Shown here: in pieces, positions 1 through 18,761 of the stretch
How positions within the stretch are numbered: position 1 is the stretch's first letter
Layout: the number at the start of each line of letters is the position of its first letter
Source: Escherichia coli
Lineage (GTDB): Bacteria > Pseudomonadota > Gammaproteobacteria > Enterobacterales > Enterobacteriaceae
NCBI RefSeq assembly: GCF_044324785.1
Contig: NZ_CP172127.1
Length of the DNA: 64,000 nt
Reading direction: 5' to 3' (one strand)
Notes under the pieces: model-generated
What the model was told of the DNA's origin: nothing
Database searches by the model: none
What the model saw: the letters and a program-made list of their open reading frames with translations, nothing else
Made by a program: the position numbers and the translations under genes

Positions 1-127
1 GTTATGATCGAGTGTGTTTCAAGAGTGTTTGCAACTCTGTTTTAAGGGCGAATGAAAAGGATTCGGACAGGATGACCGTGATTAATTTAACCCGGAAGCA
101 AAAGTTGATTTTCATTCTGATATGCCT

Positions 128-1252: not shown

Positions 1253-1314
1253 ATCGGCCTTCCACGATAAAAACGGGGAAGGTAGGAATAGTGAAACGGA
1301 AATGCAATATCGCC

Positions 1315-1333
1315 GTGCCAATCCGGTGTGTGG
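1315..1333 (+). repeat. shufflon 19-bp repeat 1 (gtgccaatccggtgtgtgg)
   Basis: Exact match to the repeat inside pilV (reverse complement of 2578..2596). Confidence 0.85.
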
Positions 1334-1705
1334 ATTGGCTTTGAATCCTACCCTGTGGGAAGCCCTATCCCATGGCCATCTGCCACTCCTCCACAAGGCT
1401 ATCTGTTGATGAACGGCCAGTCGTTTTCCTGTTCCCGGTATCCTCAGCTTGCCCGTGCTTATCCTGGCTGTAAATTGCCCGATCTGCGCGGTGTTTTTAT
1501 CCGTGGCTGGGATAACGGGAAGGGACTTGATGGTGATCGGAACAGACAACTCCTGAGTTATCAGGCCGATCAATCAGGCGTCTATCACGAACGTGGCGGA
1601 TGGCTGAAAGGGCATCATAGTGGTATGCCATACTGGGCACAGGGGAGTACCACAGAAATGCGTCCCAAAAATATTGCATTCAACTACATTGTTAAAGCCA
1701 GCTAG
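1315..1705 (+). CDS. silent alternative PilV C-terminal cassette A, phage tail-collar-like
   Basis: Open frame from repeat 1: [13 protein letters not shown]...[45 protein letters not shown], which resembles the conserved tail-fibre collar motif. No promoter or start of its own; expressed only after inversion. Confidence 0.6.
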
Positions 1706-1709
1706 GGAC

Positions 1710-2061
1710 TCACATCTGATAGGCATACACAGAGAAAACACCGTTACCACAGGCGTAATTTTGTGTTGGTCTGGAGATGATTTGATATGACGCTCCCACT
1801 GGCACGGCAAATGAAATAAATGCTGTCTTTCCGTAGGAGGGGTTATTGCTGGCATTCATACCAATGAAAGCGCCGTTCACATAGCCCTGAAGATTTGATG
1901 TGTTGGCGCAATCACCGCCACCGGCACCATTTCCACCGGAAGCGTACACAAACAAAGTTCCTCTGCCGTTATTTCTCCCGTTAAATGTTCCCCGGTGAGA
2001 ACCCAGATTGCTGTAACTTCCGTCAGGTGCACCAATCGTTCGCCACACACCGGATTGGCAC
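1710..2061 (-). CDS. silent alternative PilV C-terminal cassette A' (Gly/Asn-rich)
   Basis: Open frame on minus strand running from repeat 2 (CQSGVWRTIGAPDGSYSNLG...) to stop at 1710; convergent with cassette A. Confidence 0.55.
2043..2061 (-). repeat. shufflon 19-bp repeat 2 (inverted orientation)
   Basis: Plus strand reads ccacacaccggattggcac, the exact reverse complement of repeat 1. Confidence 0.85.
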
Positions 2062-2069
2062 GGAGGCCA

Positions 2070-2088
2070 GTGCCAATCCGGTTTGTGG
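2070..2088 (+). repeat. shufflon 19-bp repeat 3 (one mismatch: gtgccaatccggtttgtgg)
   Basis: Direct orientation; separated from repeat 2 by an 8-bp spacer. Confidence 0.8.
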
Positions 2089-2295
2089 CTTGGAGGCAAT
2101 AAAGTGAACTATTCTGCCTGTAAATGGTATGAAGCGACCTCCGCACATTTTATCGGTGGCAGAAGCGGAGGCTCTATTTATTACAAGCCGATTCAGTGCC
2201 CTGCCGGGTACGTCATGACAGGTACAAGAATGTACGGCATCGGAGATGGTGTTGATGAAGAGCACGTCGATGCTTACTGTTGCCCTTTTGGTTAG
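2070..2295 (+). CDS. silent alternative PilV C-terminal cassette B' (Cys-containing)
   Basis: Open frame from repeat 3: CQSGLWLGGNKVNYSACKWYEATSAHFIGG...CCPFG; convergent with the currently expressed pilV C-terminus. Confidence 0.55.
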
Positions 2296-2331
2296 ATTCC
2301 GAGGGCCGGTATTTAATTTTCTCCCGTTGGC

Positions 2332-3534
2332 TTATTTCTCACAGATTGCTATAGCCTGGAAACAACTCAGGGAGCCAGAGCCAGTAGCAATCCACCGATT
2401 GTTTTTGTAATCAGGGTAACTACCATCTGGTGAGTTGTATCCGTTATGGACCCACTGGGATAACCTGTAGCCGCCGGAGACCAACTTACTCCCCGATGGG
2501 CATACCGCGTAAGACGATGTCTGAAAGCACCCATTCCCGCCGGATACTGTGAAACGCTCTTTTTTGTCACTGTTTTGCCACACACCGGATTGGCACGAAA
2601 GTATTGCCCCTTTACTGTCGCGGCCTACAAGTCCGTCCGGTGAGCAGGAAGTACCTGCGGTGGCTGTTTTTTCCAGCTGTAAATACTCACCCGTGGAAAG
2701 ACGCCCCTCAGACCGGACAGTTCCACCACTGACTTTTCCTCCTTTGAGCTCTCCTTCGGTTGTGATCCCTTTGTTGTTAACAGCACGTATCCATTGGCTG
2801 TCCGTCATGGTGAAGCCGCCACCATTTGGATGTAACCAACGATTTGATGTGACATCGCCTGAAAATCTGGCGTTTTTACCACTGGCTTCATTGATATTGG
2901 TGATGCTGTTATTATTCATATCAATGCCAGTATGCATTCTGTTTAAATCGGGTCTTCCCTGAACGCTGTAGCGGTAAAGCCGATCGCTTTCCTCCAGATC
3001 TTTTCCAGCCATTCGCATGGCGATATGCCCCTTGTTGCAGGTAATCTGATAATTACTTCCCAGATCGGTCCAGCCGCCAAAGGCACCTGTAACGGAATTA
3101 TTCTGGAGCATAAAACCACCGAGTCCATTAATCTGGCCCGCTATGCGACGTAACCCATCTTCTTTAATATCCTGTCCTCCGGTTGTGCAGGTAAGTGCTT
3201 CCAGACGACCGGATAAATTATTTTTTCTGATACCGGTAATATAGCTGTGTCCAAAGGGGGAGCGGGAAAAACCGTTGTTCAGATATCCCTGCTGAATTAA
3301 TTCATTTACCGTGATGGTTTTACTGGAAAGTGAGCTGGTTTTATCAGCCACATAATTCTTTATTGCATTATTATATTCATCAGCATGTAAAGCCGCACTT
3401 TGATAAAGTTGTTCATTCAGCCAGTCTTCAATTTCTGAATAAATCATTGGCGTGGCGATACCAATTACTATCAGGCCTGCCAGAATTTCAAGCAGAATAA
3501 AACCTTTATCGTCATCGTGTCTGAATTTTTTCAC
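2332..3534 (-). CDS. pilV: type IVB minor pilin/adhesin PilV, current shufflon isoform (400 aa)
   Basis: Prepilin-like N-terminus (MKKFRHDDDKG/FILLEILAGLIVIGIA); C-terminal third lies inside shufflon segment B; GTG start overlapping the pilU stop. Confidence 0.8.
   Translation of the reverse strand: MKKFRHDDDKGFILLEILAGLIVIGIATPMIYSEIEDWLNEQLYQSAALHADEYNNAIKNYVADKTSSLSSKTITVNELIQQGYLNNGFSRSPFGHSYITGIRKNNLSGRLEALTCTTGGQDIKEDGLRRIAGQINGLGGFMLQNNSVTGAFGGWTDLGSNYQITCNKGHIAMRMAGKDLEESDRLYRYSVQGRPDLNRMHTGIDMNNNSITNINEASGKNARFSGDVTSNRWLHPNGGGFTMTDSQWIRAVNNKGITTEGELKGGKVSGGTVRSEGRLSTGEYLQLEKTATAGTSCSPDGLVGRDSKGAILSCQSGVWQNSDKKERFTVSGGNGCFQTSSYAVCPSGSKLVSGGYRLSQWVHNGYNSPDGSYPDYKNNRWIATGSGSLSCFQAIAICEK
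2578..2596 (-). repeat. shufflon 19-bp repeat 4, inside pilV at the constant/variable junction
   Basis: Plus strand reads ccacacaccggattggcac; in pilV it encodes CQSGVW. Confidence 0.85.
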
Positions 3535-4181
3535 GTGAATATCTCCGATGTGTGGATAACGGAATCAGGGAAGAGGGTCAGCACATACAGGGACCCGCAG
3601 AGAAACGGGGCAAACGGCAGCGCCAGCTGGCGTCTGCGACGGCAGAAAATGAGGATAAACAGAAATGCTCCGGAGGCTGCGGCGGTGATTATGAGTGGAG
3701 TGTGTTGCGGTTGCGTCCACATTGCGATCCCCGCAATCAGGAACACATCACCAAGGCCGAGCGCTTCCGTCCCTTTCGCTGCCAGAAAAATGCGTCGTAA
3801 CAGGTATATCATGCCGAACCACAGTGACGCGTTGAGCAGGGCATGAGCCAGTGAGTCCTGGCTGTATCTGAACGCTGCGCCCAGAATAATAAGAGAAAGC
3901 GTGAATATCCGGGGAAGCCGACAGACAGCAATATCCGTCAGCGTCATTACAGTTAATAATCCCGTCAGAATGGAAAGGAATAACAGTCCTGTCGCGTCAA
4001 CACCATATGCACCGTTGAGGCAAATGCTCAGGACAGCCAGAAGACAACAGATGCACACCGCAGCGTTGTGTGGGCGGGTATTGTGTACTTCTGATAAATA
4101 TACTGTGGCGGCGCTGTATGAAAGATACAGAATTGCCGCAAGGACAATCAGGATAATGCATATCGGGAGTAATTCAGACAC
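3531..4181 (-). CDS. pilU: prepilin peptidase (216 aa)
   Basis: Polytopic membrane protein in the expected pil-operon position; GTG start. Assigned by synteny with the R64 thin-pilus operon and hydrophobicity profile. Confidence 0.65.
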   Translation of the reverse strand: MSELLPICIILIVLAAILYLSYSAATVYLSEVHNTRPHNAAVCICCLLAVLSICLNGAYGVDATGLLFLSILTGLLTVMTLTDIAVCRLPRIFTLSLIILGAAFRYSQDSLAHALLNASLWFGMIYLLRRIFLAAKGTEALGLGDVFLIAGIAMWTQPQHTPLIITAAASGAFLFILIFCRRRRQLALPFAPFLCGSLYVLTLFPDSVIHTSEIFT

Positions 4182-4193
4182 AGTTACCTCAGC

Positions 4194-4670
4194 TTAATCT
4201 TTTCTGAAATACCGGTTGTGGATTATTCGGGCATATATCATGCGCCGGGCTGTGTTATTTTTGCTGAATCCTGCGTTGTAACTGCCAAGGCATTCCCAGT
4301 TAACGCCGCAGCGTTGAAAATGGCGGGCCAGTATCCAGGCACCGGTATGAATATTCAGGCAGGGCTTTTTAAGCAGTTCATCCTTGTTTTTAATGACGCC
4401 CAGTTTTTTCAGTTCAGGAATATGCACTGAATTAATCTGCATTATTCCGTAATCCGTACTGATGATTTTTCCGGATTTGTTTTTATTGTGATTTATCGCA
4501 GTGGCGACCAGGCCGCTTTCCTGCTGTGCAATGGTTTTCAGAAGCTCAGGGGCAATCAGGTAACGTTTTCCGGCCTGAATAAAACAGGAATCGAGATGAT
4601 TATTATTCATCACAGATGCGATTGATGTGTGACTGAATAAAAGCAGGACAGAGAGATATAACCATTTCAT
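4194..4670 (-). CDS. pilT: lytic transglycosylase, SLT domain (158 aa)
   Basis: Signal peptide followed by SLT-like motifs (TIAQQESG, YGIMQIN); in R64-type operons pilT is a transglycosylase, not the retraction ATPase. Confidence 0.75.
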   Translation of the reverse strand: MKWLYLSVLLLFSHTSIASVMNNNHLDSCFIQAGKRYLIAPELLKTIAQQESGLVATAINHNKNKSGKIISTDYGIMQINSVHIPELKKLGVIKNKDELLKKPCLNIHTGAWILARHFQRCGVNWECLGSYNAGFSKNNTARRMIYARIIHNRYFRKD

Positions 4671-4728
4671 TATGATAATCCCGGCAGTGACAGCATCCTC
4701 TGGTATTTAAGGATGCTGTCCGGAAACA

Positions 4729-5265
4729 TTAGCTGTTTGTTTCAAGGGTGATGTTATTTTTGTCGTTACTACATACTGTTACGGGATCCACAGTAGCCGG
4801 GGCGGTATTCATGATTTTGGTAAACATGGATGAACTGCGCAGGCTGTTAATGAGTTCCACGCAATTTTCTTTCGGTACATTATTGCTGGTAATCGTATAA
4901 CCATACTTATCTGCTGTTGCCTTAATGGTGACATCACCGCCCCAGGCATTTTTGGCCTTGTTACCACCGGCGATCATATCGGCCGGCAGGGAACCACTCT
5001 GCGTCAGCGTTTTGATATAATCACTGCTGGTATATTGTCCCTGGAACTTGTACTGCTTCATTTTTGTTGCAATAGTCTGCAGGTTTTTCAGTTCACGCTG
5101 GTTATCACTGGATGACATTGTGCTGGACATCTGACTTATTGCGAGAGATACCACAATACCGATGATAATCAGTGCACCGGCAACTTCCAGTAAGGTTAAA
5201 CCTTTATCCTCCTCTTTCTCTTTTTTTAAAGCAAAATAAGAATAAAGACATGATCTGAAGTTCAT
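4729..5265 (-). CDS. pilS: type IVB major prepilin (178 aa)
   Basis: Long leader then G/LTLLEV cleavage motif and hydrophobic alpha-helical N-terminus; AGGAG RBS upstream. Confidence 0.8.
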   Translation of the reverse strand: MNFRSCLYSYFALKKEKEEDKGLTLLEVAGALIIIGIVVSLAISQMSSTMSSSDNQRELKNLQTIATKMKQYKFQGQYTSSDYIKTLTQSGSLPADMIAGGNKAKNAWGGDVTIKATADKYGYTITSNNVPKENCVELINSLRSSSMFTKIMNTAPATVDPVTVCSNDKNNITLETNS

Positions 5266-5314
5266 ATATCACTCCTGGTTTATGGGATGTTTCAGAAATA
5301 TTCTGTATGCGGGA

Positions 5315-6415
5315 TTATTGTTTCAGCATGTCGCTGATACTGTAGATGGCAGATATCATGTTAAGAATAAAAAAGAAGACAAAACCTCCTGATATACCGG
5401 TAATAATTAATCCCATTCGTTTTACCCGTTTTTTTGCCTCTTCCAGCCACTGATCGGCATAGAGTGCCATGGTTGCCACTCTGTCCTCCCTTTCGGAGTT
5501 CAGGAGCAGTTTATTGATGCATATTCTGGACGGAAAATCGTAACCGGAATTTCGCATTGCTGTGGCCAGATTCTGACCGGATAATACATGTTTTCGTATT
5601 GCCTGAATTCTCTCCTTTAACCATTTATTCTTTTCTGCACCTTTTTCCATTCGGAGCAGCGCCTGCGAAAGAGGAATATTAATCTGCAGCATGGATGAAA
5701 TACTGAACAGATAATTCACCCCGTGTAAGGTCTGATACAGTGACCAGGGGGGAGCCTTGTCCAGCATCCTCCGGCCGGGGCCGGTATACCGGCTGAATGA
5801 AAAACGGATCAGAAGCGTCAGGGCGAAAATGGTCCCACAGAGCCAGAATCCGTACCCGATGAAAAATTCCGACATGCCGGCAAGCAATTTCATCTGGAAT
5901 GACCATTTATCTTCTGAAGCAAACGCACTGACGATGGGGATGATACGGGTATGGGCGTTGTACATATTCACCACACAGAGCGAAAGCAGCAGAAGGGGGT
6001 AGAGGCAGACGGCAATGAGGCTGGATGTCATTTCCCGCCGGGCTTTAACGGTTCTGGCCACCTGGAAAAGGGCGTCGGCAATATTTCCGCGCTCTTCCCC
6101 GTTTCTGATTAACGTGGCTTCCTCCGGTGGCACCCAGGTTAACAGGGCACCGGATAACATGCCGCTGGCTTTGATGGAATCGATGCATTCTTTTGCCAGA
6201 AAATACATGCCGGATGTGCCTTTCTTTTCACCAAAATCGGTTTCGATCTCGCAGAGAAATTCGAGTGCACGCAGGGACGGCGTTCCGTCACGTATCATGC
6301 CGCCCAGGGCTTCGTAGAACTCCACCCGGTTCAGGGCAAAGGTTTTTCTGGCTATCCAGACAGTCAGTGCTGTCAGCTCAATGTCGGTGTTGTTGAGTTT
6401 TTCCAGAAATCTCAT
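5315..6415 (-). CDS. pilR: type IV pilus inner-membrane platform protein, GspF/PilC-like (366 aa)
   Basis: Start set to ATG at 6415 (MRFLEKLNNTD...), immediately after the pilQ stop; size agrees with R64 PilR. Confidence 0.7.
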   Translation of the reverse strand: MRFLEKLNNTDIELTALTVWIARKTFALNRVEFYEALGGMIRDGTPSLRALEFLCEIETDFGEKKGTSGMYFLAKECIDSIKASGMLSGALLTWVPPEEATLIRNGEERGNIADALFQVARTVKARREMTSSLIAVCLYPLLLLSLCVVNMYNAHTRIIPIVSAFASEDKWSFQMKLLAGMSEFFIGYGFWLCGTIFALTLLIRFSFSRYTGPGRRMLDKAPPWSLYQTLHGVNYLFSISSMLQINIPLSQALLRMEKGAEKNKWLKERIQAIRKHVLSGQNLATAMRNSGYDFPSRICINKLLLNSEREDRVATMALYADQWLEEAKKRVKRMGLIITGISGGFVFFFILNMISAIYSISDMLKQ

Positions 6416-6416
6416 G

Positions 6417-7937
6417 TCAGTGCAGCAGCGTATAGCTGTCCTCGTCGATGGGAGAGATGTAATGGGCCGCCAGCGGATCAACCTGCCCGCTGTTGATTTT
6501 TCCCAGCAGATGCTGATTTCGTGTCATGCCGCCCAGCTCCCGGTGCCAGTATGTTCTGGCCTCAATACGCCCCTTTTCCCGGTACAACTGGAAAAAACGC
6601 GCATCCGGGGAGATGACTTCTGCGATCACCGTTCGTCCTGTCACGCCACGCCAGCAGTGCGGGCAGCCTTCATGATTTCGCAGATATACCTGGTCCGGGT
6701 TGCAGACGCTTTCCACCAGGCGCCGTTCATCATCCGTGCGCTCGGTAGCCACCTCATGCCAGGGGCGACGGCAGTGCGGACATATCAGCTGAACCAGACG
6801 CTGGCTCAGCAGGCCAATGAACAGTTGCGGGTCGGCAATCATCCTGGCCTGTACCCCCTCCATCTCAAGACGTTCGAGGATGTTAATCGGGTCGTTCGCA
6901 TGGATGGTGGTCAGCATCAGATGCCCGGTCATGGCGGCTTTTATTGCCGTAATGGCGGAATCGTGGTCACGGATTTCGCCGTTCAGGATCCCGTCAGGGT
7001 CAAGACGCAGTGCTGATTTAATGGAGTCCACCCAGCCCTGTGCGGAATCCATGACGGCGGTCTGAATGGCACCGGGTATACGGCCCTCTGGCGGGGATTC
7101 AATGGTGAACAGCCTGCGACGGGGCAGAAGAATACCGCCGGTATTGTTGAAGCCGTACTGTTCAAGGTACGCCGCAGAGGCGGTTCTCAGCGTGGTGGAT
7201 TTTCCTGAACCTGTTGGTCCTGAGAGCGTGATAATACCTTCAGGGCGCTGCAGAATACGGCGCAGGGTGCGCTCCTGCTCAGGGTGGTAGCCCAGCATGC
7301 TGAAGGTCGGGATTTGCTGACTGTCATCCTTGATCAGACGGAGCACAGCATAGAGGCCGCCCACGCAGGGATAGTGGGAGTAGCGTGCACCAAACAGACC
7401 GGCCAGTTTCAGGTACTGCTCTGAAAGACGCGCATCCTGAGGCACCCCGGGATCAAACTGTGTGCCCTTGATGACGTCGGTCATGCCGGAATAGGTGGCC
7501 CCCAGTAATTCGAGGCCTTCTTCTTTCCGGAGGATATCGAGCACTTCCAGTTCGCCGTGAACCCGGGCTTCCACATAGGTGAAGTCCGTGTTGTCTCGTC
7601 CCGGGGTCATATGAAGGTCTGAGGCATCCAGTTGAGCGGCTTTTCTGATGTAATCAAGAACTTTTCTTTGTACTGTGTTGATCCCTCCGTCGGATAAAAC
7701 GCCCGGTGCACGTTCCGTATTATTGCTGTTCAGGGTTGCGATAACGTCAAGAGTGGTAAAATCGAATTTGCTGATTTTTCCCGGATAGCGGGAGCGTAAG
7801 AGCGTCAGGTAACGTTGTACAGAGGTGATGTGCTTCTTCGCCTCGACGACTTTCACCCTGATTTTTCCGTCAGCGTCATGCTGAATTGCGACGAAATCAC
7901 GAATATCTTCAGGAGGCAGTTCGATAGTCTCTGGCAT
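6417..7937 (-). CDS. pilQ: type IV pilus assembly ATPase, GspE family (506 aa)
   Basis: Walker A (LSGPTGSGKSTTL) and tetracysteine motif (CPHC...CPHC). Confidence 0.85.
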   Translation of the reverse strand: MPETIELPPEDIRDFVAIQHDADGKIRVKVVEAKKHITSVQRYLTLLRSRYPGKISKFDFTTLDVIATLNSNNTERAPGVLSDGGINTVQRKVLDYIRKAAQLDASDLHMTPGRDNTDFTYVEARVHGELEVLDILRKEEGLELLGATYSGMTDVIKGTQFDPGVPQDARLSEQYLKLAGLFGARYSHYPCVGGLYAVLRLIKDDSQQIPTFSMLGYHPEQERTLRRILQRPEGIITLSGPTGSGKSTTLRTASAAYLEQYGFNNTGGILLPRRRLFTIESPPEGRIPGAIQTAVMDSAQGWVDSIKSALRLDPDGILNGEIRDHDSAITAIKAAMTGHLMLTTIHANDPINILERLEMEGVQARMIADPQLFIGLLSQRLVQLICPHCRRPWHEVATERTDDERRLVESVCNPDQVYLRNHEGCPHCWRGVTGRTVIAEVISPDARFFQLYREKGRIEARTYWHRELGGMTRNQHLLGKINSGQVDPLAAHYISPIDEDSYTLLH

Positions 7938-7946
7938 GATGGCACC

Positions 7947-8408
7947 TCACGGGAGTAGCGTCTGCCTGTTGCCGTTGTATTCCAGAATCACACTGTCCGG
8001 TGTGATTTGTTCCACCATGAACAGTGTACCGGGTAATGCCTGTCCGGCCCTGACATCAGTTTCAGTTCCTCCGGGGAGTATGACGCGTGCTGAAAGCTGT
8101 GGCTGAATACCAAAGATTTCTTTCAGACGGGGGGATGAAAATGCCTGTGAACCGGAGGAGGTGCCAGCCGCATTTTCCGGCTGATGTCCCGTGACAGAAC
8201 CGGAAACCGGGGAGATACCCTGTTCCAGTGTCCGCAATTCATGACGAATTTTTTCTCTTGCCAGCATCGCTTCATACAGGGCGGTTTCTTCCTGAATCTG
8301 CTCAATCTGCAGTTGTTTGTTCTGTGACGCGTCATTTTCGTTGCCGGCCACTGCCATTGCCGGTAACAGCAGGGCTGCAATCAGCAGCGCTTTTGTTTTA
8401 TCGTGCAT
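7947..8408 (-). CDS. pilP: pilus assembly protein PilP-like (153 aa)
   Basis: Internal ATG at 8408 gives a signal-peptide N-terminus (MHDKTKALLIAALLLPAMAVA); size matches R64 PilP. Confidence 0.65.
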   Translation of the reverse strand: MHDKTKALLIAALLLPAMAVAGNENDASQNKQLQIEQIQEETALYEAMLAREKIRHELRTLEQGISPVSGSVTGHQPENAAGTSSGSQAFSSPRLKEIFGIQPQLSARVILPGGTETDVRAGQALPGTLFMVEQITPDSVILEYNGNRQTLLP

Positions 8409-9693
8409 AATATTTACCTGTGAACTGATAACGGAAACGACCATTTTCCAGTTGTCTTGTGACAGAGAGAAAACGGACAGATGGCTCGCTGAAGCGCTCT
8501 GCCAGCTGGTTAGCCGGGAGTAGCGTCTGTATCTGCAGGTCATACTCTTTCCACGGTGGCTGGATGATGTTTCCGTTTTCATCAGTGAAGCTGTTATTGA
8601 CTTCCTGCCAGTCAATCTGCAGTTGAACTGACTGTGCGAGCGTGGTCAGTCGTTCCTGCAGGTCTCGGGTTTCCGGAAGGGAATCAACCGGGACAGGATT
8701 ATCCGGGAGCCGGAATGTGACCGGCAGTGCAACGCCGCCAGAGTTCCCTTCAGGCATAACAATAAACGGCCGGGTGTCTGTGAGTTCAGTGATGCGCCGG
8801 ATGAAGGCTGTCACTGTCGTGCCTGCTGTATTGGTGTATGAAGACCGCAGATTACCGCTGTTACCGTCAGAAGAACATTCAGCCAGGGTATAACGCCATC
8901 CGGCAGCAGACAGTGGCGTCTGGTTCCATGTTGTGCTGCATTGCCGGATAAATTCTCCGCTCTCAGGCTGCCTCGTCCATGGTGGCGTTATACGTGCTTC
9001 AGCTGCTTTCCGGGCGCTTTCTTCCCGTTCCGCTTTTTCCGCCTGCCAGATTTCATAACGTTGCCAGCCGTACCACGATGCGCCAAGCAGCGTGATGATG
9101 AGTAAGGCTGTCATTAACTGTGGGCCTCTGGACACGGGGAGCAGACGCGCTTCTGCCGGATGCTTTCTGGTGCTGATCAGGTTTGACAGCGGTAGCGGGA
9201 TACACCGACTGTCTGGTGAAAAACCGTCAGGTTCGTAGCGTACCCAGCCGTTTTCCGGTTCCGCATTGAGCATCAGGAACGTGTTGCGGGCTTCCGTGAT
9301 TTCAGTCGGGGTACCGGTAACGTCGTTAACCAGAATGCCATTAATCACCGATACAAACGCACAGGTGAGTTCAGCGTCGTCGTTCTCGTCGTTCCCGATG
9401 ATGAAAATGGCATACCCACCTGATTTGAGTAGCGGGCGTATTAACATTGCCAGTGACAGGCACTGGCGAATGTTACGGGGGATATCTGCATCCTGACGAC
9501 TGAGCAGGGCAATCATCATTTCATCACCGTTTTCACCGTCGTGGTTGTGGCAGGAAAGATACAGTTCTGCGCCCTGTGACCGGGCAAACCGCCGGGCATT
9601 CCGGTAACCGGGAGGTATGCTCTTCCAGTCAAGGCCCGCAAGGAATGCCTGTTTACCCGATATCAGTGAAACCGGACGAATTTTTTTCTGCAT
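8398..9693 (-). CDS. pilO: pilus assembly protein PilO-like (431 aa)
   Basis: Start at ATG 9693 (MQKKIRPV...); length equals R64 PilO as I recall it; one internal TM segment. Assigned by synteny. Confidence 0.65.
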   Translation of the reverse strand: MQKKIRPVSLISGKQAFLAGLDWKSIPPGYRNARRFARSQGAELYLSCHNHDGENGDEMMIALLSRQDADIPRNIRQCLSLAMLIRPLLKSGGYAIFIIGNDENDDAELTCAFVSVINGILVNDVTGTPTEITEARNTFLMLNAEPENGWVRYEPDGFSPDSRCIPLPLSNLISTRKHPAEARLLPVSRGPQLMTALLIITLLGASWYGWQRYEIWQAEKAEREESARKAAEARITPPWTRQPESGEFIRQCSTTWNQTPLSAAGWRYTLAECSSDGNSGNLRSSYTNTAGTTVTAFIRRITELTDTRPFIVMPEGNSGGVALPVTFRLPDNPVPVDSLPETRDLQERLTTLAQSVQLQIDWQEVNNSFTDENGNIIQPPWKEYDLQIQTLLPANQLAERFSEPSVRFLSVTRQLENGRFRYQFTGKYYAR

Positions 9694-9716
9694 TGACCCG
9701 TTCAAGGGAACCTCCG

Positions 9717-11342
9717 TCAGATTACGTGCGGTGTGATCAGCACAACCAGAATGGTGTCATCGTCACCGCTGTCAGTGCCGCCACCCAGCCCGAAGAATGC
9801 CGGGCTGCCGACGCCCTGGCGCACGGATTTGCTGCCGGACTGCCGGAATCCGCTGAGAATGACGGTCTGACCTGATTTCAGGTCGATGGTCTGGTTGATG
9901 GTTTTCAGGTCCACCGTGGGTACCTGTGCCCGGCTGCCGCCGCTCTCGAACACCTCAAAGGTGGGTTTGTCGGAGAGGTTCATGCTGAAGAGCAGCTGCA
10001 GGCTGCGCGCATCCGGCTGAATGAACGGCAGCAGGGTCATGTTGAAGCCGGTGGTGATGGTGGCGGCGTTCAGGGAGGTGCTGGTCCCGACGTTGGCCGT
10101 GGTGTCGGTGGTGACACCTTCGATATAGCCCTGCTGGCTGGCCACCTGCATGGGCACCGGCGTCATGTTTTTGGTGACGGCGGAGTTCTGTGTGACCACG
10201 CTGACGGTGCCCTGACTGGAGAGCGCCTTCAGGAAGGCCTTCGAGCCGGTGAGCTTACCGTCCACAATGGAGACGCCACTGGTGATGATGTCATCGGCGG
10301 CACTGCTGAATGCCCCTCCCAGCGTGAGGCCGAGACGTCCGTCGCTGAAGACGGCATTCCAGTCAATGCCGGCCTGGTCACGGCGGGTTTTTCTGACGCT
10401 GAGGACTTCCACGTTCAGCACCACCTGACGTCGCATCTCGCGGTTACGTGCCTCCACAAAACGGCTGACGGTGTCGAGGACCCGAGGGGTGTCGGTGACG
10501 GTGAGAAAGCCGGTGGCAAGCACCATCCGGCCGGTCCCGGGGGTCAGCATGGCACCGACGGCATTTTTCAGGTCCTCATAGAGGGTGGACTTCATGTCGA
10601 CCGTGGTGGTCTGGGTGTTGCTGGCCTCCCCGCTGAGGGTGCCGGCGTTACTGCCGGTACTGCTGCCGGATGAGGAGGAGGCGGTGCCACTGACCACCCG
10701 GGCGTTGTAGGTCACCTGAGAGTCCATGTAGGTGACCGGGAAGGTGCGTGTCTCCAGCCAGTAAAAGGTGATGGCGCGCCGGTCACTGTCGTAACGGTAC
10801 GAGATACCGAGCCGGGAGGCGACGGTATCCAGCAGCTGCCGCAGCCCGGTGGCGCTGAGTTCCGGCAGGACGGCACCGCCGCCCGGGGGGATGACCTGTG
10901 CGCCACTGCCGACGGCGGCCAGCGGCACCATGCCGTTCGGGTCCGGTGCGGGGATTGCGCCTGTCAGCTGCTGTGTGGGGCCGGTGGTGGCCAGCGCCTG
11001 CCAGACGTCGGCGGTGATGGTCACGGGGATACCGCAGCTTCCGGTGATGCGCTGGGCTATCTGCCGCAGGCTGATATCCCGGCGGGTGTTGATGATGATG
11101 GGGCAGCCCGGCAGGCTCTGGTGTGCGGGGCTGACGCTGACAGGGGAGGGGTTGATCCACTGTCGCGTGGTCTCCGTGACCACCGGCCGGGATTTACGGA
11201 GTTCGCCTGCGTGCCGGCGCGCTTTCTCCAGTGTGGCGGTGGCGTCTTTTTCCGTGTTGCTGATACGTTCGGCCGTACCGCAGCCTGACAGCAGCAGGGC
11301 GACGGCAGTCAGTGGCAGGAGCATGTGTTGTCTTTTTTTCAT
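9717..11342 (-). CDS. pilN: outer-membrane secretin lipoprotein (541 aa)
   Basis: Lipoprotein signal (MKKRQHMLLPLTAVALLLSGCG); secretin-like C-terminal region (...ILVVLITPHVI). Confidence 0.8.
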   Translation of the reverse strand: MKKRQHMLLPLTAVALLLSGCGTAERISNTEKDATATLEKARRHAGELRKSRPVVTETTRQWINPSPVSVSPAHQSLPGCPIIINTRRDISLRQIAQRITGSCGIPVTITADVWQALATTGPTQQLTGAIPAPDPNGMVPLAAVGSGAQVIPPGGGAVLPELSATGLRQLLDTVASRLGISYRYDSDRRAITFYWLETRTFPVTYMDSQVTYNARVVSGTASSSSGSSTGSNAGTLSGEASNTQTTTVDMKSTLYEDLKNAVGAMLTPGTGRMVLATGFLTVTDTPRVLDTVSRFVEARNREMRRQVVLNVEVLSVRKTRRDQAGIDWNAVFSDGRLGLTLGGAFSSAADDIITSGVSIVDGKLTGSKAFLKALSSQGTVSVVTQNSAVTKNMTPVPMQVASQQGYIEGVTTDTTANVGTSTSLNAATITTGFNMTLLPFIQPDARSLQLLFSMNLSDKPTFEVFESGGSRAQVPTVDLKTINQTIDLKSGQTVILSGFRQSGSKSVRQGVGSPAFFGLGGGTDSGDDDTILVVLITPHVI

Positions 11343-11531
11343 GCAGAAATCCTTGTGTGAAACGTGAAAACAGTGAGCAGAGCAGGGAGGGCAGAAGCGC
11401 TTCGGGACTGAAGTCTGCGCGTGATGGCGATATATCCGCGGGACATGACCGCGGCCGGATATGCAGACTTCAGTCCACAGGCTCCTCACACTGTGCGGGA
11501 CAGCGAAGGTTAACGGTGCAGTGATGTCCCG

Positions 11532-11969
11532 CTAGTTGAAATAAACAAATGCGCTGTCAGGAATGACGGACGGCACGCTGATACCGGTGTCCTGACCTGT
11601 GGTGTTCAGCAGTCGCCGCCCCTTCACCCGGCCTGCCAGCGCGGTTTTGTGGGTGATGTCTGCCAGCGCACCTGCAAGCCCCGGGCGGTCATCCTGCCAG
11701 ACAAAGACCCGCTGTCCGGCGATGATATGGCGGGTACCGTATACCGGGCGGAAACCCGTGGCGGTGACGGGGAGCGTGCCACCCCCCGTGCGCTCAGCCG
11801 GATGGGTGTACAGCCGGTCGTTAATGCCGTTCATGAGGCGGACCATCTCCCACGCACGTTCACGCATCTCCGCCTGCTCGCTGTACACGGTGACCCGGTG
11901 GGTACTGCTGTTGTGAAACCAGGTCAGCGCCACGGTCAGGGCCATGACCAGGGAGAGCGACCAGCCCAT
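11532..11969 (-). CDS. pilM: pilus assembly protein PilM-like (145 aa)
   Basis: Start at ATG 11969 (MGWSLSLVMALTVALTW...), directly after the pilL stop. Assigned by synteny and size. Confidence 0.6.
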   Translation of the reverse strand: MGWSLSLVMALTVALTWFHNSSTHRVTVYSEQAEMRERAWEMVRLMNGINDRLYTHPAERTGGGTLPVTATGFRPVYGTRHIIAGQRVFVWQDDRPGLAGALADITHKTALAGRVKGRRLLNTTGQDTGISVPSVIPDSAFVYFN

Positions 11970-11971
11970 GG

Positions 11972-12697
11972 TCAGTCTCCCGGTCTGTCGCTGACGTGCA
12001 CCACACACTGCGTGCTGTTGATGGCTGCATACAGCGGCGTCTGTGCGTCCTGATAGAGACGGAAGAGTTCACTGAGCGCGTGGCGGAACTCGCCGGTGAA
12101 ATGCAGCGGCGCATCGATGCTGTAATTGAGTCCGGGGTTCTGCCAGGCCAGCTGCCAGGTGCCACCGGCCTGACAGGGAACGGCGGCCACCCACTGCTCA
12201 AGACCGGCACGCAGCAGGGTTCCGCGGGCAAGAGTCCAGGTGGTCCGTGCATGCGCCGGTTGCGGCATGTTTGCTGATTTTTCCGCGGTTTTTTCCTGCA
12301 GACTGGTGGTGCCCGGGGTGGCCTGAGACGGACTGAACAGGGTGTTCCGCTCAATACGTACATGCTTCTTCTCCGTGTCGGTGATGGCGCGGAGCTGATA
12401 TTTTTTCAGCATGCGTTCCGTAACGTAATTCCACTGGTCATTTCCCTTCCATGACACCGTGCGGGGCGGCCTGACATCCGGTGCAATGTCAAATGTCCAT
12501 CCCGGCGGTATCAGTTGCTGCATGGCTTTTTTCAGTGATAACCCTTTACCGTCCCGGGGAATAAATTTCAGTGCTCCCGGAGCGCTGCTGACCGTGGACG
12601 ATGAGGGTGCACTGACCTGAGAAGGTGACGGTGCAGCAAAAAGTGGAACAGAAAATGCCAGCAGCGGCACAATAAGAAGTGGTTTCAGTGGTGTCAT
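11972..12697 (-). CDS. pilL: pilus assembly protein PilL-like, secreted (241 aa)
   Basis: Signal peptide (MTPLKPLLIVPLLAFSVPLFAAPSPS); first large gene of the operon. Assigned by synteny. Confidence 0.6.
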   Translation of the reverse strand: MTPLKPLLIVPLLAFSVPLFAAPSPSQVSAPSSSTVSSAPGALKFIPRDGKGLSLKKAMQQLIPPGWTFDIAPDVRPPRTVSWKGNDQWNYVTERMLKKYQLRAITDTEKKHVRIERNTLFSPSQATPGTTSLQEKTAEKSANMPQPAHARTTWTLARGTLLRAGLEQWVAAVPCQAGGTWQLAWQNPGLNYSIDAPLHFTGEFRHALSELFRLYQDAQTPLYAAINSTQCVVHVSDRPGD

Positions 12698-13494: not shown

Positions 13495-15003
13495 ATGTCC
13501 CTGAATCCCACCGATGAACAGTCAGCCATCATTCACTGGCAGGGGGAAAAACTGGTGGTGAATGCCTTTGCCGGTACAGGCAAAACCAGCACACTGGTGC
13601 AGTTCGCCGCAGCCTGCCCTGAGAGCCGGATGCTGTATCTGGCCTATAACCGCGCGATTCGTGATGAGGCGGAGCGCCGGTTTCCCTTTAATGTGGAGTG
13701 CAAAACCTCCCATCAGCTGGCGTATTCGCGGTTCGGAAAGCATTTCCGGCATCGTCTGGTGCCGGGGCTGTCAGTGACGGATGTAGCGAGAAAACTGAAC
13801 ACCCGCTACTGGACGCTTGCCCGTGTTGCCATGACCGCGCTGAATCAGTTCATCTGTTCGGCGGACGTGGCGCCCGGAATGCAGCATATGCCGCCTCCCG
13901 ACGAGATGAAGGGCATGTCGCCACAGGATGCGCTGCGTGCCGTGCAGATCCTCTGGCATGAAATGAGCAATCCGGATGGCAATTTTCCGGTCACTCACGA
14001 CACCTATCTGAAGCTCTATCAGCTTTCCTCACCGGATCTGTCACGCAGGTGGGATACGATCCTTTTTGATGAGGCCCAGGATGCGAATCCGGTGACGTCC
14101 GCACTGGTGCTGGGGCAGCGGTGCAGGGTGGTACTGGTTGGCGACCGTTACCAGCAGATTTATCGTTTTCGTGGTGCCAGCAATGCACTGTCGCATCCGG
14201 CACTGAACGGGGCGGACCGTCTCTGGCTGACGCAAAGTTTTCGTTTTGGTCCTGCCGTGGCCGGGGTGGCCAGCCAGTTACTGAAGCGTGCCGGCGAGAG
14301 CCGTGAGGTGACCGGCAGGGGCGGGGATGATGAAGTGCTGACGGCAGGTGAAATGCGTGCGCGCGTGAAGGCAGGGAAGATGACCGGTCACAGGGCGATA
14401 CTGAGCCGGACGGTGGCCGGTGTGATTGGCACCGCACTGATGGCGGCAATGCGTGGCAGGAAGGTTTACTGGGTGGGGGGCATTGAAGGCTACAGAACGG
14501 AGGCACTGGAAGATCTTTACTGGTTTCAGATGGATATGCCGGAGCGGATGCACAGTGACAGACTGCGGAAGGACTACCGGGGTTTTGACGAGTACCGTCA
14601 TATTGCGAAGGTGACGAAGGATGTGGAAATGAATCAGTCCATTCGTCTGCTGGAGCTGTGCTTTCCGCTGCCGAAGAAACTCGAACTTCTCAGAAAGCAC
14701 ACCGTCACGAATGAACAGGAGGCGGATATCACGGTCTCAACGGCACACCGCAGTAAGGGACTGGAGTGGTCACTGGTGGTACTCGATGATGATTTTCAGG
14801 ATATCACCGACCCGCTGATAAGCGAGCAGGAGCGGCGGGATGAAACCAATCTGCTCTATGTGGCGGTCACCCGGGCGCGCAGAACGCTGGTTCTCAATGA
14901 ACTCATGCAGCAGCTGACGGAAGCTGCCGGCGATGGTGGTGCACCCGGAAACGCGCCGGTGCAGGGGAAGGAAGACGATGGTGTGGAGGGAGAGGATGTT
15001 TAA
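13495..15003 (+). CDS. UvrD/Rep-like superfamily-1 DNA helicase, short form (502 aa)
   Basis: SF1 motifs in order: Walker A (AFAGTGKTS), DEAQD (motif II), VGDRYQQIYRFRGA (III), SFRFG, TAHRSKGLEW (V), LYVAVTRAR (VI); GGAGG RBS. Confidence 0.8.
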   Translation: MSLNPTDEQSAIIHWQGEKLVVNAFAGTGKTSTLVQFAAACPESRMLYLAYNRAIRDEAERRFPFNVECKTSHQLAYSRFGKHFRHRLVPGLSVTDVARKLNTRYWTLARVAMTALNQFICSADVAPGMQHMPPPDEMKGMSPQDALRAVQILWHEMSNPDGNFPVTHDTYLKLYQLSSPDLSRRWDTILFDEAQDANPVTSALVLGQRCRVVLVGDRYQQIYRFRGASNALSHPALNGADRLWLTQSFRFGPAVAGVASQLLKRAGESREVTGRGGDDEVLTAGEMRARVKAGKMTGHRAILSRTVAGVIGTALMAAMRGRKVYWVGGIEGYRTEALEDLYWFQMDMPERMHSDRLRKDYRGFDEYRHIAKVTKDVEMNQSIRLLELCFPLPKKLELLRKHTVTNEQEADITVSTAHRSKGLEWSLVVLDDDFQDITDPLISEQERRDETNLLYVAVTRARRTLVLNELMQQLTEAAGDGGAPGNAPVQGKEDDGVEGEDV

Positions 15004-16525
15004 GCGGTTCAGACGTATGCTGCCCGGCACAAAGGGCACGGAGCCTGGCGTGGTCGCGCCGGTGATACCGGCAGGGTTTTATGCGCCGCTCACGGCAGAG
15101 GCACTGTTATCACCAGAGCACAGGGAGCTGAGGCTCAGGCAGGTCTGGGATAACAATCCGATGCCCCGTGATGTATACGACAGGATGTGCCTTGAACCAC
15201 TCAGCCGGCTGCTGCTGAACACCCAGAACGTCCCGGCAACACGGGAAGGACGGTGGTCCCGTGCCGGTGGATTTGGTGATCTGACGGTACTGTACACCAC
15301 GTATGCCGTTCGTCTGGCAAGAGGGTACATGTTTCCACCGGATGCGACCCCGGAAGACCAGGCGGCTCAGGCCGCAGTCTGGCATGCGGTGATTTTCTGG
15401 TCAGCGCTGTTTTACCACCTGCCCCTGCTGGCGCACCTTGAGGGGGAACTGCTGAGTGGGCGGGGCTGGCAGCCAGGAATTTCTGTGCCTGACGAACCTT
15501 TCCGTTTCCGGTTCAGGAAGACGGCGCCGCAGGGTACGGAAGCGCAACAACTTGCGGCCCTGACTGCCGGCACGCTGTTACCGGACGGCGCAACGGCCTG
15601 GCTTGTGACGGCGCCGGGCGCACTGCAGAATCTGGCCGGGGCGCTCTGGCATCAGCATCCCGGGATGGCGCTGATTCGTGATGTGCTGCAGGAAGCGGCA
15701 AGGCAGACAGAGAGTCCGCTGAATACCTGCGCTGTCACTGCGCCGGTTACTGCGGAGGCTTCAGCAGACATTCGTCCTGCTGACCCGGTGGTGACCGGCA
15801 GCACGGACAGTGTGGTGGCAGTCACTGAGGTGCAGCCGGCAGAGGAGGTGAAGACTGAGAGCGTGCAGACAGAGACTGAAGGTGGTGGTGAGTCCGCCGG
15901 GGCGTCAGAGGTGCCGTCCGCACAGCAGGAACTGACGGTTCAGACAGCGCCAGTGGTGACGGCAGATGATGAAGCGGTCAGTGCTGCTCCTGCGGATCAG
16001 GACACAGCAATGCTGCTGAGTCTTTTTTCAGCAGATGAGTCCGAAACTGCTGAACCTGAAAACAGTATTAAATCGTCAGCCGATCGGGACGGCCAAAGTG
16101 ACGTACCGGCAGTACAGGGAGAACAAACCAGCGTTATTTATCCGGAGGGCGAAGCAGATACGGAAGAGGTGGATTTTATTACTTGGCTGAAATCGGGGTT
16201 GTCATCGGGGATGATTGAAATAAATACACCTTCCGCGAGAGTGCATTGTATTGCGGGGTATGTTTTTTTGTGTGTCCCGGATATTTTTTATCTGTATCAG
16301 AAAATGACGGGAAGCCGTCGTGACCGCAGGAGTGTTCAGGCGTTGTTTGAACGTTCCCGTATTCACAAAATCCGGGAAGGTGAGCGTTTTTTCAGCCTGC
16401 ATCTGTATAGTGTACCTGACAGAACAGGGAGTTATAAAGCTGTAAGCGGATATCTGGTTAAAAGCCGTTATCTGTGTGGTTATAACGCAGTGCCCGGGGA
16501 CAGTGAATACATTGCTTTTCCATAA
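14996..16525 (+). CDS. hypothetical 509-aa protein: N-terminal domain, long acidic low-complexity linker, conserved-looking C-terminal domain
   Basis: ATG overlaps the helicase stop (ATGTTTAA) with GGAGGG RBS; no Walker A and no HD motif found by eye; alternative starts at 14933 or 14978. Confidence 0.6.
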   Translation: MFKRFRRMLPGTKGTEPGVVAPVIPAGFYAPLTAEALLSPEHRELRLRQVWDNNPMPRDVYDRMCLEPLSRLLLNTQNVPATREGRWSRAGGFGDLTVLYTTYAVRLARGYMFPPDATPEDQAAQAAVWHAVIFWSALFYHLPLLAHLEGELLSGRGWQPGISVPDEPFRFRFRKTAPQGTEAQQLAALTAGTLLPDGATAWLVTAPGALQNLAGALWHQHPGMALIRDVLQEAARQTESPLNTCAVTAPVTAEASADIRPADPVVTGSTDSVVAVTEVQPAEEVKTESVQTETEGGGESAGASEVPSAQQELTVQTAPVVTADDEAVSAAPADQDTAMLLSLFSADESETAEPENSIKSSADRDGQSDVPAVQGEQTSVIYPEGEADTEEVDFITWLKSGLSSGMIEINTPSARVHCIAGYVFLCVPDIFYLYQKMTGSRRDRRSVQALFERSRIHKIREGERFFSLHLYSVPDRTGSYKAVSGYLVKSRYLCGYNAVPGDSEYIAFP

Positions 16526-16555: not shown

Positions 16556-17668
16556 ATGTATTCCCCTATGAAGAAAGATGTCGAAAAAATAACGTGGGAG
16601 GAATTACTCTTTGAGTACTTCCTTGAGAAAAATCTTAAACCTGATACTGAACACAGCTACCGCAAAGTTGTCCGTCTGTTTGATAAGTTCCTGGGCGGTG
16701 ATTCCTGGCCCGGCGATGTCACACCGAGAGACATTCAGCGATGGCGACGTCATATGCTTAAAGATCAGGGGCGTTCAGTAAACACCTGGAATAACAGAGT
16801 GTCACATCTCCGACCGCTCCTGGCGCTTGGGATCAAGAAAAAGTGGTTACCACAGACGGAAAATCCGCTTGATGGCACTTCAGTGCCCGGGGCATCAAAA
16901 CAGAAAAAAACGCTCACTGATAAAGAGATGGTCAGGATTTACCGTACAGTTCAGGCTTTTGCTGAAGCTGAGGCCAATAAGATGGTGATCTGTGACAGGC
17001 GGCGCAATGCGATGTACCCTGCATGGTACTGGCTGATCGTGCTGGATACGCTGCGCTTCACGGGGATGCGTTTTAACCAGCTGAAACATATCAGGCTGAA
17101 GGATATTCATGAGGATGAGGCGGTGATTACCCTTCAGCTGGAAGGGAGTAAAACCCGACGTGAATGGCGTGTGCCGATTGTGGAATCGTTACGACTTTCA
17201 CTGAAACATCTTATTGAGTGCGCCCGTGTCAATGGTGCGTCGGATAATGACTATCTCTTTGATGTCTGCCTGTACAGCGAGCATTACAGTCCCGGGAAAT
17301 ACCAGTACTGTGCCAAAAGAGCGCATCAGTCGGTCAAATCTTTTTTCCGCAGACTGAGCCGTGAATGTGGTTTTTTTGTCTCGTCACACAGATTCAGACA
17401 CACACTGGCAACAAAGCTGATGGCGGCACCGGAGCGTAATCTGCACATGGTCAAATCCATTCTGGGGCACAGGAGTGTTGCCACCACCATGGAGTATATT
17501 GATTTTTCGGTGGAAGTTGCTGCTGAGGCACTGGAGGCTGAACTCGGTTTATCCACGGATGAGGCGACAAAAAGACGGATTAAAGAGGCGAAAAAACGCC
17601 GTGAGGCCAGTACCGGGAAAAAGGAAAAACAGGAAAGTTCTGGAGGGGAACTTTCTGACAAGGAATAA
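16556..17668 (+). CDS. int: tyrosine-type site-specific integrase (370 aa)
   Basis: Catalytic-domain motifs (RFRHTLATKLM; LGHRSVATTMEYIDF); about 200 bp from the tRNA-Phe 3' end. Confidence 0.85.
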   Translation: MYSPMKKDVEKITWEELLFEYFLEKNLKPDTEHSYRKVVRLFDKFLGGDSWPGDVTPRDIQRWRRHMLKDQGRSVNTWNNRVSHLRPLLALGIKKKWLPQTENPLDGTSVPGASKQKKTLTDKEMVRIYRTVQAFAEAEANKMVICDRRRNAMYPAWYWLIVLDTLRFTGMRFNQLKHIRLKDIHEDEAVITLQLEGSKTRREWRVPIVESLRLSLKHLIECARVNGASDNDYLFDVCLYSEHYSPGKYQYCAKRAHQSVKSFFRRLSRECGFFVSSHRFRHTLATKLMAAPERNLHMVKSILGHRSVATTMEYIDFSVEVAAEALEAELGLSTDEATKRRIKEAKKRREASTGKKEKQESSGGELSDKE

Positions 17669-17872
17669 ACATGCTTGACATCGGACCAGAATGGTGTAAG
17701 CATTTTTGCGTATGCGAGAGCGTGACACCTGTTACCAGCAGGTGCCACGCTTGAGGATACGATACTGAAACCACAGTGTAACCAGACTTACACGGAGATT
17801 TCGTTATGACCGGATCCTGTATTAGACGCCCGTTAAGGATCTCATCCCTTAACCAGCGTACTTTGATGCGTT

Positions 17873-17948
17873 TGGTGCCCGGAGGCGGAATCGAACCACC
17901 GACACGGGGATTTTCAATCCCCTGCTCTACCGACTGAGCTATCCGGGC
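17873..17948 (-). tRNA. pheV: tRNA-Phe (anticodon GAA), island integration site
   Basis: Reverse complement reads GCCCGGATAGCTCAGTCGGTAGAGCAGGGGATTGAAAATCCCCGTGTCGGTGGTTCGATTCCGCCTCCGGGCACCA; position downstream of yqgA matches pheV. Confidence 0.9.
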
Positions 17949-18053: not shown

Positions 18054-18761
18054 TCAGGCAAACCAGGCGGTCCAGGCGGCGGAAAGCGGCATTGCCAGAA
18101 GGAGTGCTGGAAGCATGTTGACCACCGGGAACATTTTAATACCACAGATGCGTAATCCGGTTGCCAGCAGCAATAAACCGCCTACGGCGCTGAAGTCTGC
18201 CATCATCGACGGTGTGGTCAGCGGTAATATCAGCGCGGCAGCCCACGCCAGTGTTAACTGGATGATCAGTAATGGAATGCTAATCACCGACACCGCAATA
18301 CCCAGCGAGCAGGCGAAGATCATCGCCGTAAAGAAATCAAGAAATGACTTGGCGATTAAAATACTCGGATCGCCGGTCATCCCTTCGTTCATCGCCCCGA
18401 AGATTCCGGTGCCGCTGGCGCAAAACAGAACAATAATCGCGACAAAATTCTGAATAAAAGATTCATGCGCTGGCTTCTTACGCGAGTGGTGAAACAGATT
18501 ATGCGCTTTGACGACCACTGTATTGACGCCTTTTTCCAGCAGACAAATTTCGCCGATTAATGCTCCGAGTAAGGTTGCTAAAACCATCGCCGGAAGGTTG
18601 GCGCATTTCACCACCAGTAAAATACCAATCCCCAGCGATGCCAGACCAAAAATTGATGTCATGGAGACGCGGATACGTTCCGGTAAGCGTTGGCTAAGGA
18701 GTGCGCCGAAAACGCCACCCAGTAAGACTGCACTTGCGTTGATAAAAGGGCCGATGACCAC
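18054..18761 (-). CDS. yqgA: DUF554 inner-membrane protein YqgA (235 aa)
   Basis: Polytopic membrane protein; between speC and pheV as in K-12. Confidence 0.85.

Follow-up and report, generated by a model that had tools for sequence, protein, structure and literature searches.

A hybrid tRNA-Phe gene with an element-borne T arm at the pheV locus of Escherichia coli

The 64,000-nucleotide stretch of Escherichia coli DNA analysed here (NZ_CP172127.1, referred to in full as the window) contains a tRNA-Phe gene whose T-stem differs from that of K-12 at four bases, in a way that leaves the pairing intact. An initial annotation of this DNA suggested that an island integrated at the gene had replaced its 3' end with a copy of its own. 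The locus thus raises the question of whether the altered T arm is a product of mutation within E. coli, of recombination between tRNA genes, or of the integration of the neighbouring element, and, in the last case, where within the gene the host and element parts meet.

The tRNA-Phe gene and the neighbouring element

The sole tRNA found in the window by ARAGORN is a tRNA-Phe(GAA) on the minus strand (Table 1), which scores 69.1 bits against Rfam RF00005 (gathering score 29) with all stems paired. The anticodon GAA occupies positions 34-36, and the cloverleaf, together with a score above the Rfam threshold, identifies the gene as an elongator tRNA-Phe. Read on the minus strand, its 3' part is ...GTGTC GGTGG TTCGATT CCGCC TCCGGGCACCA, compared with ...GTGTC CTTGG TTCGATT CCGAG TCCGGGCACCA in the RefSeq record of K-12 MG1655 pheU. 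Alignment of the two genes gives mismatches at positions 49, 50, 64 and 65 only (window coordinates 17899-17900 and 17884-17885). From K-12 to the window, C49-G65 becomes G49-C65 and U50-A64 becomes G50-C64, both Watson-Crick pairs, while the adjoining U51-G63 wobble pair is the same in both tRNAs. The initial annotation had given the GGTGG/CCGCC reading without naming a strand, and had given the K-12 form as CTTGG/CCGAG; both readings are correct, as is its statement that the differences are restricted to the two strands of the T-stem and preserve pairing (pairs 49-65 and 50-64). The cloverleaf is both the minimum-energy and the centroid fold of the window tRNA, with a predicted energy of -37.1 kcal/mol for the variant versus -34.1 kcal/mol for the canonical form. 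Artificial chimeras in which one T-stem strand is exchanged lose the T arm in the predicted fold.

The locus is pheV, with yqgA and speC upstream as on annotated E. coli chromosomes, and the 40 nt preceding the tRNA gene are the native pheV leader common to other pheV loci. A conjugative element begins right after the CCA end and extends toward lower coordinates, the first base of the window already lying within it. The integrase ORF is separated from the tRNA gene by 204 nt, and the window further covers the relaxase and helicase genes, a type IVB pilus operon and a shufflon (Table 1). The copy of the element in strain GF60, the closest proxy (99.8% identical), is ~87 kb long. Its pilus annotation comprises PilN, PilO2, PilP, a GspE-type ATPase, a pilin, a prepilin peptidase and PilV; beyond the extent of the window, it is annotated with a genomic-island-type type IV secretion system (TIGR037xx), TraD, TraG, TopB, an SPI-7-type DnaB, ParB and ParA, the last being its far-end gene. 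Proteins of the STY4528/STY4534 families are annotated in the GF60 copy alongside the SPI-7-type DnaB.

Table 1. Coordinates of the tRNA-Phe gene, its segments and the adjoining features in the window
Feature	Coordinates	Strand	Basis
Complete tRNA-Phe(GAA), pheV locus; hybrid gene, attL of the integrated element	17873..17948	-	ARAGORN; Rfam, 69.1 bits; fold; 100% identity in 72 E. coli genomes
tRNA positions 1-27, host-derived (B arm), outside the direct repeat	17922..17948	-	P arm upstream of the far-end repeat does not match
tRNA positions 28-48, anticodon stem-loop and variable loop, containing the crossover	17901..17921	-	Alignment of att copies
tRNA positions 49-76, whole T arm, 3' acceptor strand and CCA, element-derived (P' side)	17873..17900	-	attL variant and attR canonical; variant junction in 2015C-3121
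yqgA, chromosomal neighbour upstream of pheV, identifies the locus	18054..18761	-	ORF list; annotated matching E. coli loci
Inverted repeat GTTAAGG...CCTTAAC, ~20 nt beyond the CCA end, P' arm	17832..17853	-	Read from the sequence
Xer-like tyrosine recombinase (element integrase), convergent with the tRNA	16556..17668	+	ORF list; partial NCBIfam XerA/XerC/XerD matches, all below cut-offs; "site-specific integrase" in GF60
TraI/MobH-type relaxase, PFGI-1 class ICE	14933..16525	+	TIGR03760, 193 bits, above the cut-off of 161.4
UvrD-like helicase, DNA-processing module	13495..15003	+	ORF list; weak helicase-family matches; RefSeq annotation of 100% identical copies
Type IVB pilus operon, pilL-like genes through pilV	2332..12697	-	ORF list; GF60 annotation (99.8% identical)
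Rci-type shufflon recombinase gene (128-1252) and shufflon with repeats	128..2597	-	Repeats; GF60 annotation

The shufflon beside pilV is of the R64 type, with repeats of 20-21 nt (GTGCCAATCCGGTNTGTGG) in both orientations at 1313-1333, 2043-2063, 2070-2089 and 2577-2597. Compared with the copy in strain ECCNB12-2, which is otherwise 99% identical, the segment 1314-2063 is inverted, so the shufflon appears to be active.

The element is an integrating conjugative element of the ICEEc2, SPI-7, HAI2 and pKLC102-PAGI-2 kind. ICEEc2 was reportedly described by Roche et al. in 2010 from E. coli BEN374, a strain said to be of avian origin, and is said to belong to the pKLC102/PAGI-2 family. The window element resembles it as an E. 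coli conjugative element located downstream of tRNA-Phe (pheU/pheV), with an integrase-relaxase-helicase module and a type IV pilus, a likeness by description. ICEEc2-like elements are cited as integrated in pheV and pheU (PMC11537424, PMC13127887), and elements of the ICEEc2/SPI-7 kind are known at both genes in E. coli (PMC11537424, PMC13127887, PMC6761156). SPI-7, Pectobacterium HAI2 and PbN1_GI15 occupy either of two tRNA-Phe genes, one of which lies beside speC, and are flanked by 49-bp direct repeats (PMC4814525), and in the SPI-7/HAI2 family soj/parA and int are found at opposite ends of the element (PMC4814525). The element described here is like SPI-7 (of Salmonella Typhi) and HAI2 in its tRNA-Phe target beside speC, its repeats of ~49 bp, and the placement of parA and int at opposite ends.

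The element ends and the position of the crossover

The far end of the window's own copy lies beyond the window, and the far-end repeat was read on proxies that are 99.8-99.9% identical. In these proxies the repeat lies beside parA, is 49-50 bp long and spans tRNA positions 27/28 to 76. Four genomes (APEC E19035, S19-651, ECCNB12-2 and CH4804) have GGGGATTGAAAATCCCCGTGTCCTTGGTTCGATTCCGAGTCCGGGCACCA as the far-end repeat, which is the exact canonical 3' half of the E. coli gene, the sequence beside parA being GGGGATTGAAAATCCCCGTGTC-CTTGG-TTCGATTCC-GAG-TCCGGGCACCA; at the opposite end of the element in the same four genomes, the complete tRNA is the GGTGG/CCGCC variant. In three of the four, the displaced half is followed by the normal pheV downstream sequence, a terminator hairpin and a GI-pheV island. 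The direct repeat that the initial annotation had proposed to look for at the far end of the island is therefore found in close relatives, and it carries the canonical half, as replacement by integration predicts.

Strain 2015C-3121 harbors two elements of the family in tandem (NZ_CP027340.1, 1729412-1732594). At their junction, the parA end of one element is followed by a 49-nt variant tRNA segment (GGTGG/CCGCC) and then by the integrase of the next, with element DNA on both sides, which is the form expected of an excised attachment site. With the canonical half at the far end and the variant at an element-element junction, it follows that the variant T arm is element-borne. The variant attL, the canonical attR and the variant junction in 2015C-3121 together support the earlier suggestion that the island's own attP copy took the place of the tRNA 3' end.

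In GF60 the T-stem of the far-end repeat (extracted locus 11371-11419) is canonical as well, but the repeat differs from the canonical half by the additional changes G46T and C68A. These may be later mutations in a non-functional remnant, or may have come from a neighbouring second island. The repeat in this genome adjoins an island other than the usual GI-pheV (1-11182 of the same extracted locus), with genes for an arm-type integrase and a leoA dynamin-like GTPase.

In ECCNB12-2 and CH4804, the far-end repeat is overlaid by a RefSeq "tRNA-Ser" feature of 78 nt (extracted locus 1757-1834). ARAGORN finds nothing there, and for a related locus Rfam gives no more than a partial tRNA match below its threshold. 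The feature is probably an annotation artefact, made up of the displaced 3' half and a degenerate tRNA-like 5' part (GCCCGTA...) belonging to the element arm.

The crossover was bounded by aligning four attL and four attR copies with K-12 attB and one element-to-element junction. Positions 28-48 (GGGATTGAAAATCCCCGTGTC) are common to the host site, attL and the element junction, and to every attR copy of the five except that of GF60, which has T at position 46. To the left of this shared stretch the far-end copy consists of element sequence, and to its right the two T arms differ, so that, on the alignment, the crossover must lie between positions 28 and 48, within the anticodon stem-loop or the variable loop. 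The initial annotation had taken the T-stem pattern to mark the crossover point itself; the four differences set only its 3' limit. Other tyrosine integrases exploit the symmetry of the anticodon stem, the 7-nt loop forming the overlap, and a repeat extending from the anticodon stem to the 3' end corresponds to the "anticodon-loop" sublocation class; integration sublocations within tRNA genes are reportedly the subject of a 2002 paper by Williams in Nucleic Acids Res. By analogy, the crossover is likely to lie in the anticodon loop, between the symmetric strands of its stem. No tighter bound comes from the partial tRNA-Phe copies of Marinobacter, Xenorhabdus and others; of the partial-copy loci examined, only two are tied to the same element family, via ParA or integrase homologues.

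The GI-pheV islands share the target gene of this family, and are often arranged in tandem with the element, immediately past its far end. They differ in possessing an integrase of another family (P4-type, intP4) and in being oriented with the tRNA, whereas the window integrase is convergent with it. Their repeats extend from the T loop to the 3' end and are only 19-23 bp long (PMC11537424), and thus cannot replace position 49/50. An integration in which the exchange took place in the T loop or the 3' acceptor end would have a precedent in these P4-type islands, which use the last 19-23 nt of the gene (PMC11537424), and the gene in strain DSM 103246, described below, resembles the product of an exchange 3' of position 65. 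A crossover in the T loop, however, predicts half-swapped stems, CTTGG...CCGCC at attL; no gene with a single variant strand was seen among the aligned attB, attL, attR and junction copies, and this crossover is excluded because half-swapped stems are absent and are predicted to fold without a T arm. Had the exchange taken place at the 3' end, attL would have retained the host T-stem. In the elements with both ends preserved, the T-stem is instead entirely of the variant type at attL and entirely of the canonical type at attR, and the start of the repeat at position 27/28 argues against either location. We regard an exchange at either of these places as highly improbable for the window gene.

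In our assessment, the window gene is very likely E. coli pheV as it stands after site-specific integration of an element of the ICEEc2/SPI-7/HAI2/pKLC102-PAGI-2 kind. The attachment site of the element would hold a tRNA-Phe copy that runs from near position 28 through the terminal CCA, and the Xer-like tyrosine integrase, which we infer to catalyze the reaction, would exchange strands within the stretch common with the host gene, at positions 28-48. The gene expressed after integration would then be composed of the host promoter and host positions 1-27, the common stretch, and positions 49-76 of the element, while the host 3' half and its terminator would be displaced to the far end of the element, ~78-87 kb away. 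Since both T-stem strands lie 3' of the crossover, they would be replaced together, and for this reason the change looks compensated. The compensation would not have evolved in place, but would have arrived with the T arm of the element.

The mechanism itself, in which elements replace the part of a tRNA gene 3' of the crossover, is already known, and the four-base signature is a corollary of it. Elements that integrate into tRNA genes, among them P4, HP1, P22 and numerous islands, bring a substitute for the 3' part, which is duplicated in attP, and the gene stays intact. The case described here is the same in principle, with a replacement copy that is non-identical but compensated, which makes the exchange visible. 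For HAI2 in Pectobacterium, the 49-bp sites were reported to be identical (PMC4814525), whereas in E. coli the host and element T-stems are not the same, which gives four mismatches between attL and attR. No mention of the four-base T-stem signature in E. coli was found in the literature searched, which did not extend to the primary ICEEc2 and SPI-7-family descriptions.

Distribution of the variant and cases that fit poorly

The best tRNA-Phe match to the window gene was recorded in a survey of 5426 complete E. coli genomes. In 5357 records this match is the canonical form (72/76 identity), while the 76-nt variant is present at 100% identity in exactly 72 genomes; identities are either >=99% or 90-95%, and no intermediates with one to three changes were found among the 5426 genomes. 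The variant occurs in 80 places across the 72 genomes. Both tRNA-Phe loci are variant in eight of them, where it is apparently the only tRNA-Phe; in strain C5, for example, both of the two tRNA-Phe matches are variant. It is present at both pheV and pheU and in unrelated strains, and many of the carriers come from poultry. The association with the element was tabulated for 60 listed carriers (72 in all). Window-type UvrD/TraI genes are present in 41 of these, and in a further 18 the tRNA, at pheU or pheV, directly adjoins an int-TraI-UvrD module of a diverged type. An int-TraI-UvrD module therefore lies beside the variant tRNA in 59 of the 60, the remaining carrier (DSM 103246) lacking one.

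These counts bear on the simplest alternative, that the variant is a chromosomal pheV allele produced in E. coli by four point mutations and unrelated to the neighbouring element. Such an allele would keep its pairing through compensatory evolution, and DSM 103246 does have the variant without the element. The same four changes would nevertheless have to occur at pheV and pheU in unrelated strains, linked to the module in all but one of the listed carriers, and the canonical half at the far end, the variant in the element-element junction, and the gap in the identity distribution where one-to-three-change intermediates would fall all stand against it. An origin by point mutation can be considered almost certainly wrong.

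The integrase modules of the family are diverse, and at least three diverged types are represented. The window and ECCNB12-2 have no megablast-level similarity over ~1.8 kb after the tRNA, while the rest of the element is 99.3% identical. Across the diverged modules the tRNA part is identical in all, and the first 100 nt past the CCA end are related but diverged, a pattern that fits selection on the tRNA segment of the element. The P' arm contains an inverted repeat (Table 1), which in ECCNB12-2 reads GTCAGG...CCTGAC at the same spot and is thus maintained through paired changes across diverged integrase modules. No T run follows this repeat, the sole terminator-like site lying further in, at 17655-17633; it is for this reason not a typical terminator, and may be a site for the integrase or an accessory protein, or the 3' hairpin of an RNA.

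No free circular form of the element was found when plasmid records were queried with the tRNA 3' part and P' arm; apart from one short match, the hits were unrelated tRNA-Phe genes, mostly in Clostridioides "plasmids". The short match lies in a 7984-bp "plasmid" record of Klebsiella aerogenes (NZ_CP142849.1, 7166-7205), where 40 nt agree exactly with tRNA positions 24-63, the variant GGTGG strand among them. Elements of this kind at pheV and pheU have been reported to transfer (PMC13127887).

Besides the far-end repeat of GF60, one strain and one group of genomes fit the integration model less neatly. In DSM 103246 (NZ_CP019944.1, 886031-886106; extracted locus 6001-6200), the variant tRNA is fused at its CCA end to the normal GI-pheV flank and a P4-type integrase, and no conjugative element was found in the genome, the only such variant carrier noted among the 5426. 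It looks like the scar of a lost element, left by an exchange 3' of position 65. The group of genomes has the reverse arrangement, with decayed islands in NC101 (at pheU; extracted locus 2425-2700) and RM11911 (at pheV) whose int-TraI-UvrD modules are 96-97% identical to that of C5 (at pheU) and share its P' arm, located beside a canonical tRNA. The tRNA genes of C5 (variant) and NC101/RM11911 (canonical) differ only in a 17-nt patch from position 49 to 65, and the sequences are identical after the CCA end. Carriage of the module therefore does not always accompany the variant. The RM11911 element is decayed and devoid of transfer genes, and no far-end 49-bp repeat was found within 50 kb of it. 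In E24377A (extracted locus 2480-2520), a GI-pheV 23-bp repeat of the canonical form (CCGAG) is fused to the same P' arm as in C5, NC101 and RM11911. The NC101, RM11911 and E24377A group could reflect short-patch gene conversion between two tRNA-Phe genes, or an attachment-site allele with the host T arm.

The 17-nt patch between otherwise near-identical loci suggests that exchanges independent of integration do occur in this family, and the T arm of the window gene could likewise have been acquired from another tRNA-Phe copy, foreign or paralogous, through homologous recombination or short-patch gene conversion. Wherever both ends of the element are preserved, however, the variant and canonical halves are placed exactly as reciprocal site-specific integration predicts, and the window copy has beside it an integrase and P' arm that appear intact and are 99.8-100% identical to those of such elements. 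Gene conversion thus seems very improbable as the source of the window allele, and the reading of the window gene as a product of integration is unaffected by the NC101-type cases, as the gene lies beside an apparently intact integrase module of a type for which both element ends were examined.

The scar-like gene of DSM 103246 and the modules beside canonical tRNAs also suggest a broader scheme, in which integration by this family rewrites the host tRNA-Phe to a foreign, potentially sole allele that outlives the element as a scar, the reciprocal product being an attachment site with the host T arm. We consider this scheme unlikely, although it has some chance of being correct. If it were true, an attachment site with the host T arm could explain modules of the NC101/RM11911 type beside a canonical tRNA, and a second exchange point 3' of position 65 would be involved, perhaps through the P4-type integrase of the tandem GI-pheV island. 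The four attL/attR mismatches, together with a T arm that is slightly tighter and also more stable, might in that case influence the stability of the element or translation in the host.

Origin and function of the hybrid gene

Among the matches listed, the 33-nt variant 3' half is part of full tRNA-Phe genes in Vibrio, Aliivibrio, Photorhabdus, Xenorhabdus, Marinobacter, Alcanivorax, Idiomarina and other Gammaproteobacteria, often at more than one locus per genome. The whole 76 nt are identical to the window gene at at least 36 loci in other genera, including native tRNA-Phe genes of Xenorhabdus, Alcanivorax, Marinobacterium and Salinivibrio. Partial copies starting in the anticodon stem were found in the same scan. 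The GGTGG/CCGCC T arm is thus native in many Gammaproteobacteria, which makes the CTTGG/CCGAG form of E. coli the odd one out and the element form the commoner of the two. The initial annotation had suggested that the donor possessed a tRNA-Phe different from that of E. coli. The T arm of the element is indeed of a non-E. coli form, but with the crossover lying 5' of the T arm, the element keeps its own T arm through every cycle of integration and excision, so the immediate donor need not differ from E. coli, and the element may well have come most recently from another E. coli.

The two swapped pairs are predicted to change binding to EF-Tu by a small amount, ~0.4 kcal/mol tighter (about -0.4); per-pair values for EF-Tu binding are given in Table 2 of PMC3239215. 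The fold energy, this small shift, the identity to full tRNA-Phe genes of other genera and the genomes in which both loci are variant suggest that the hybrid tRNA-Phe is very probably fully functional in translation, as far as its sequence allows one to judge.

The four-base signature allows the host part of the tRNA gene to be told by eye from the part contributed by the mobile element and sets a bound on the crossover, providing a clean worked example of integration into a tRNA gene. The presence of GGTGG/CCGCC in an E. coli tRNA-Phe is in addition a cheap marker of present, and rarely of past, occupancy by this element family, which matters because elements in pheV and pheU can drive Hfr-like chromosome transfer (PMC13127887).
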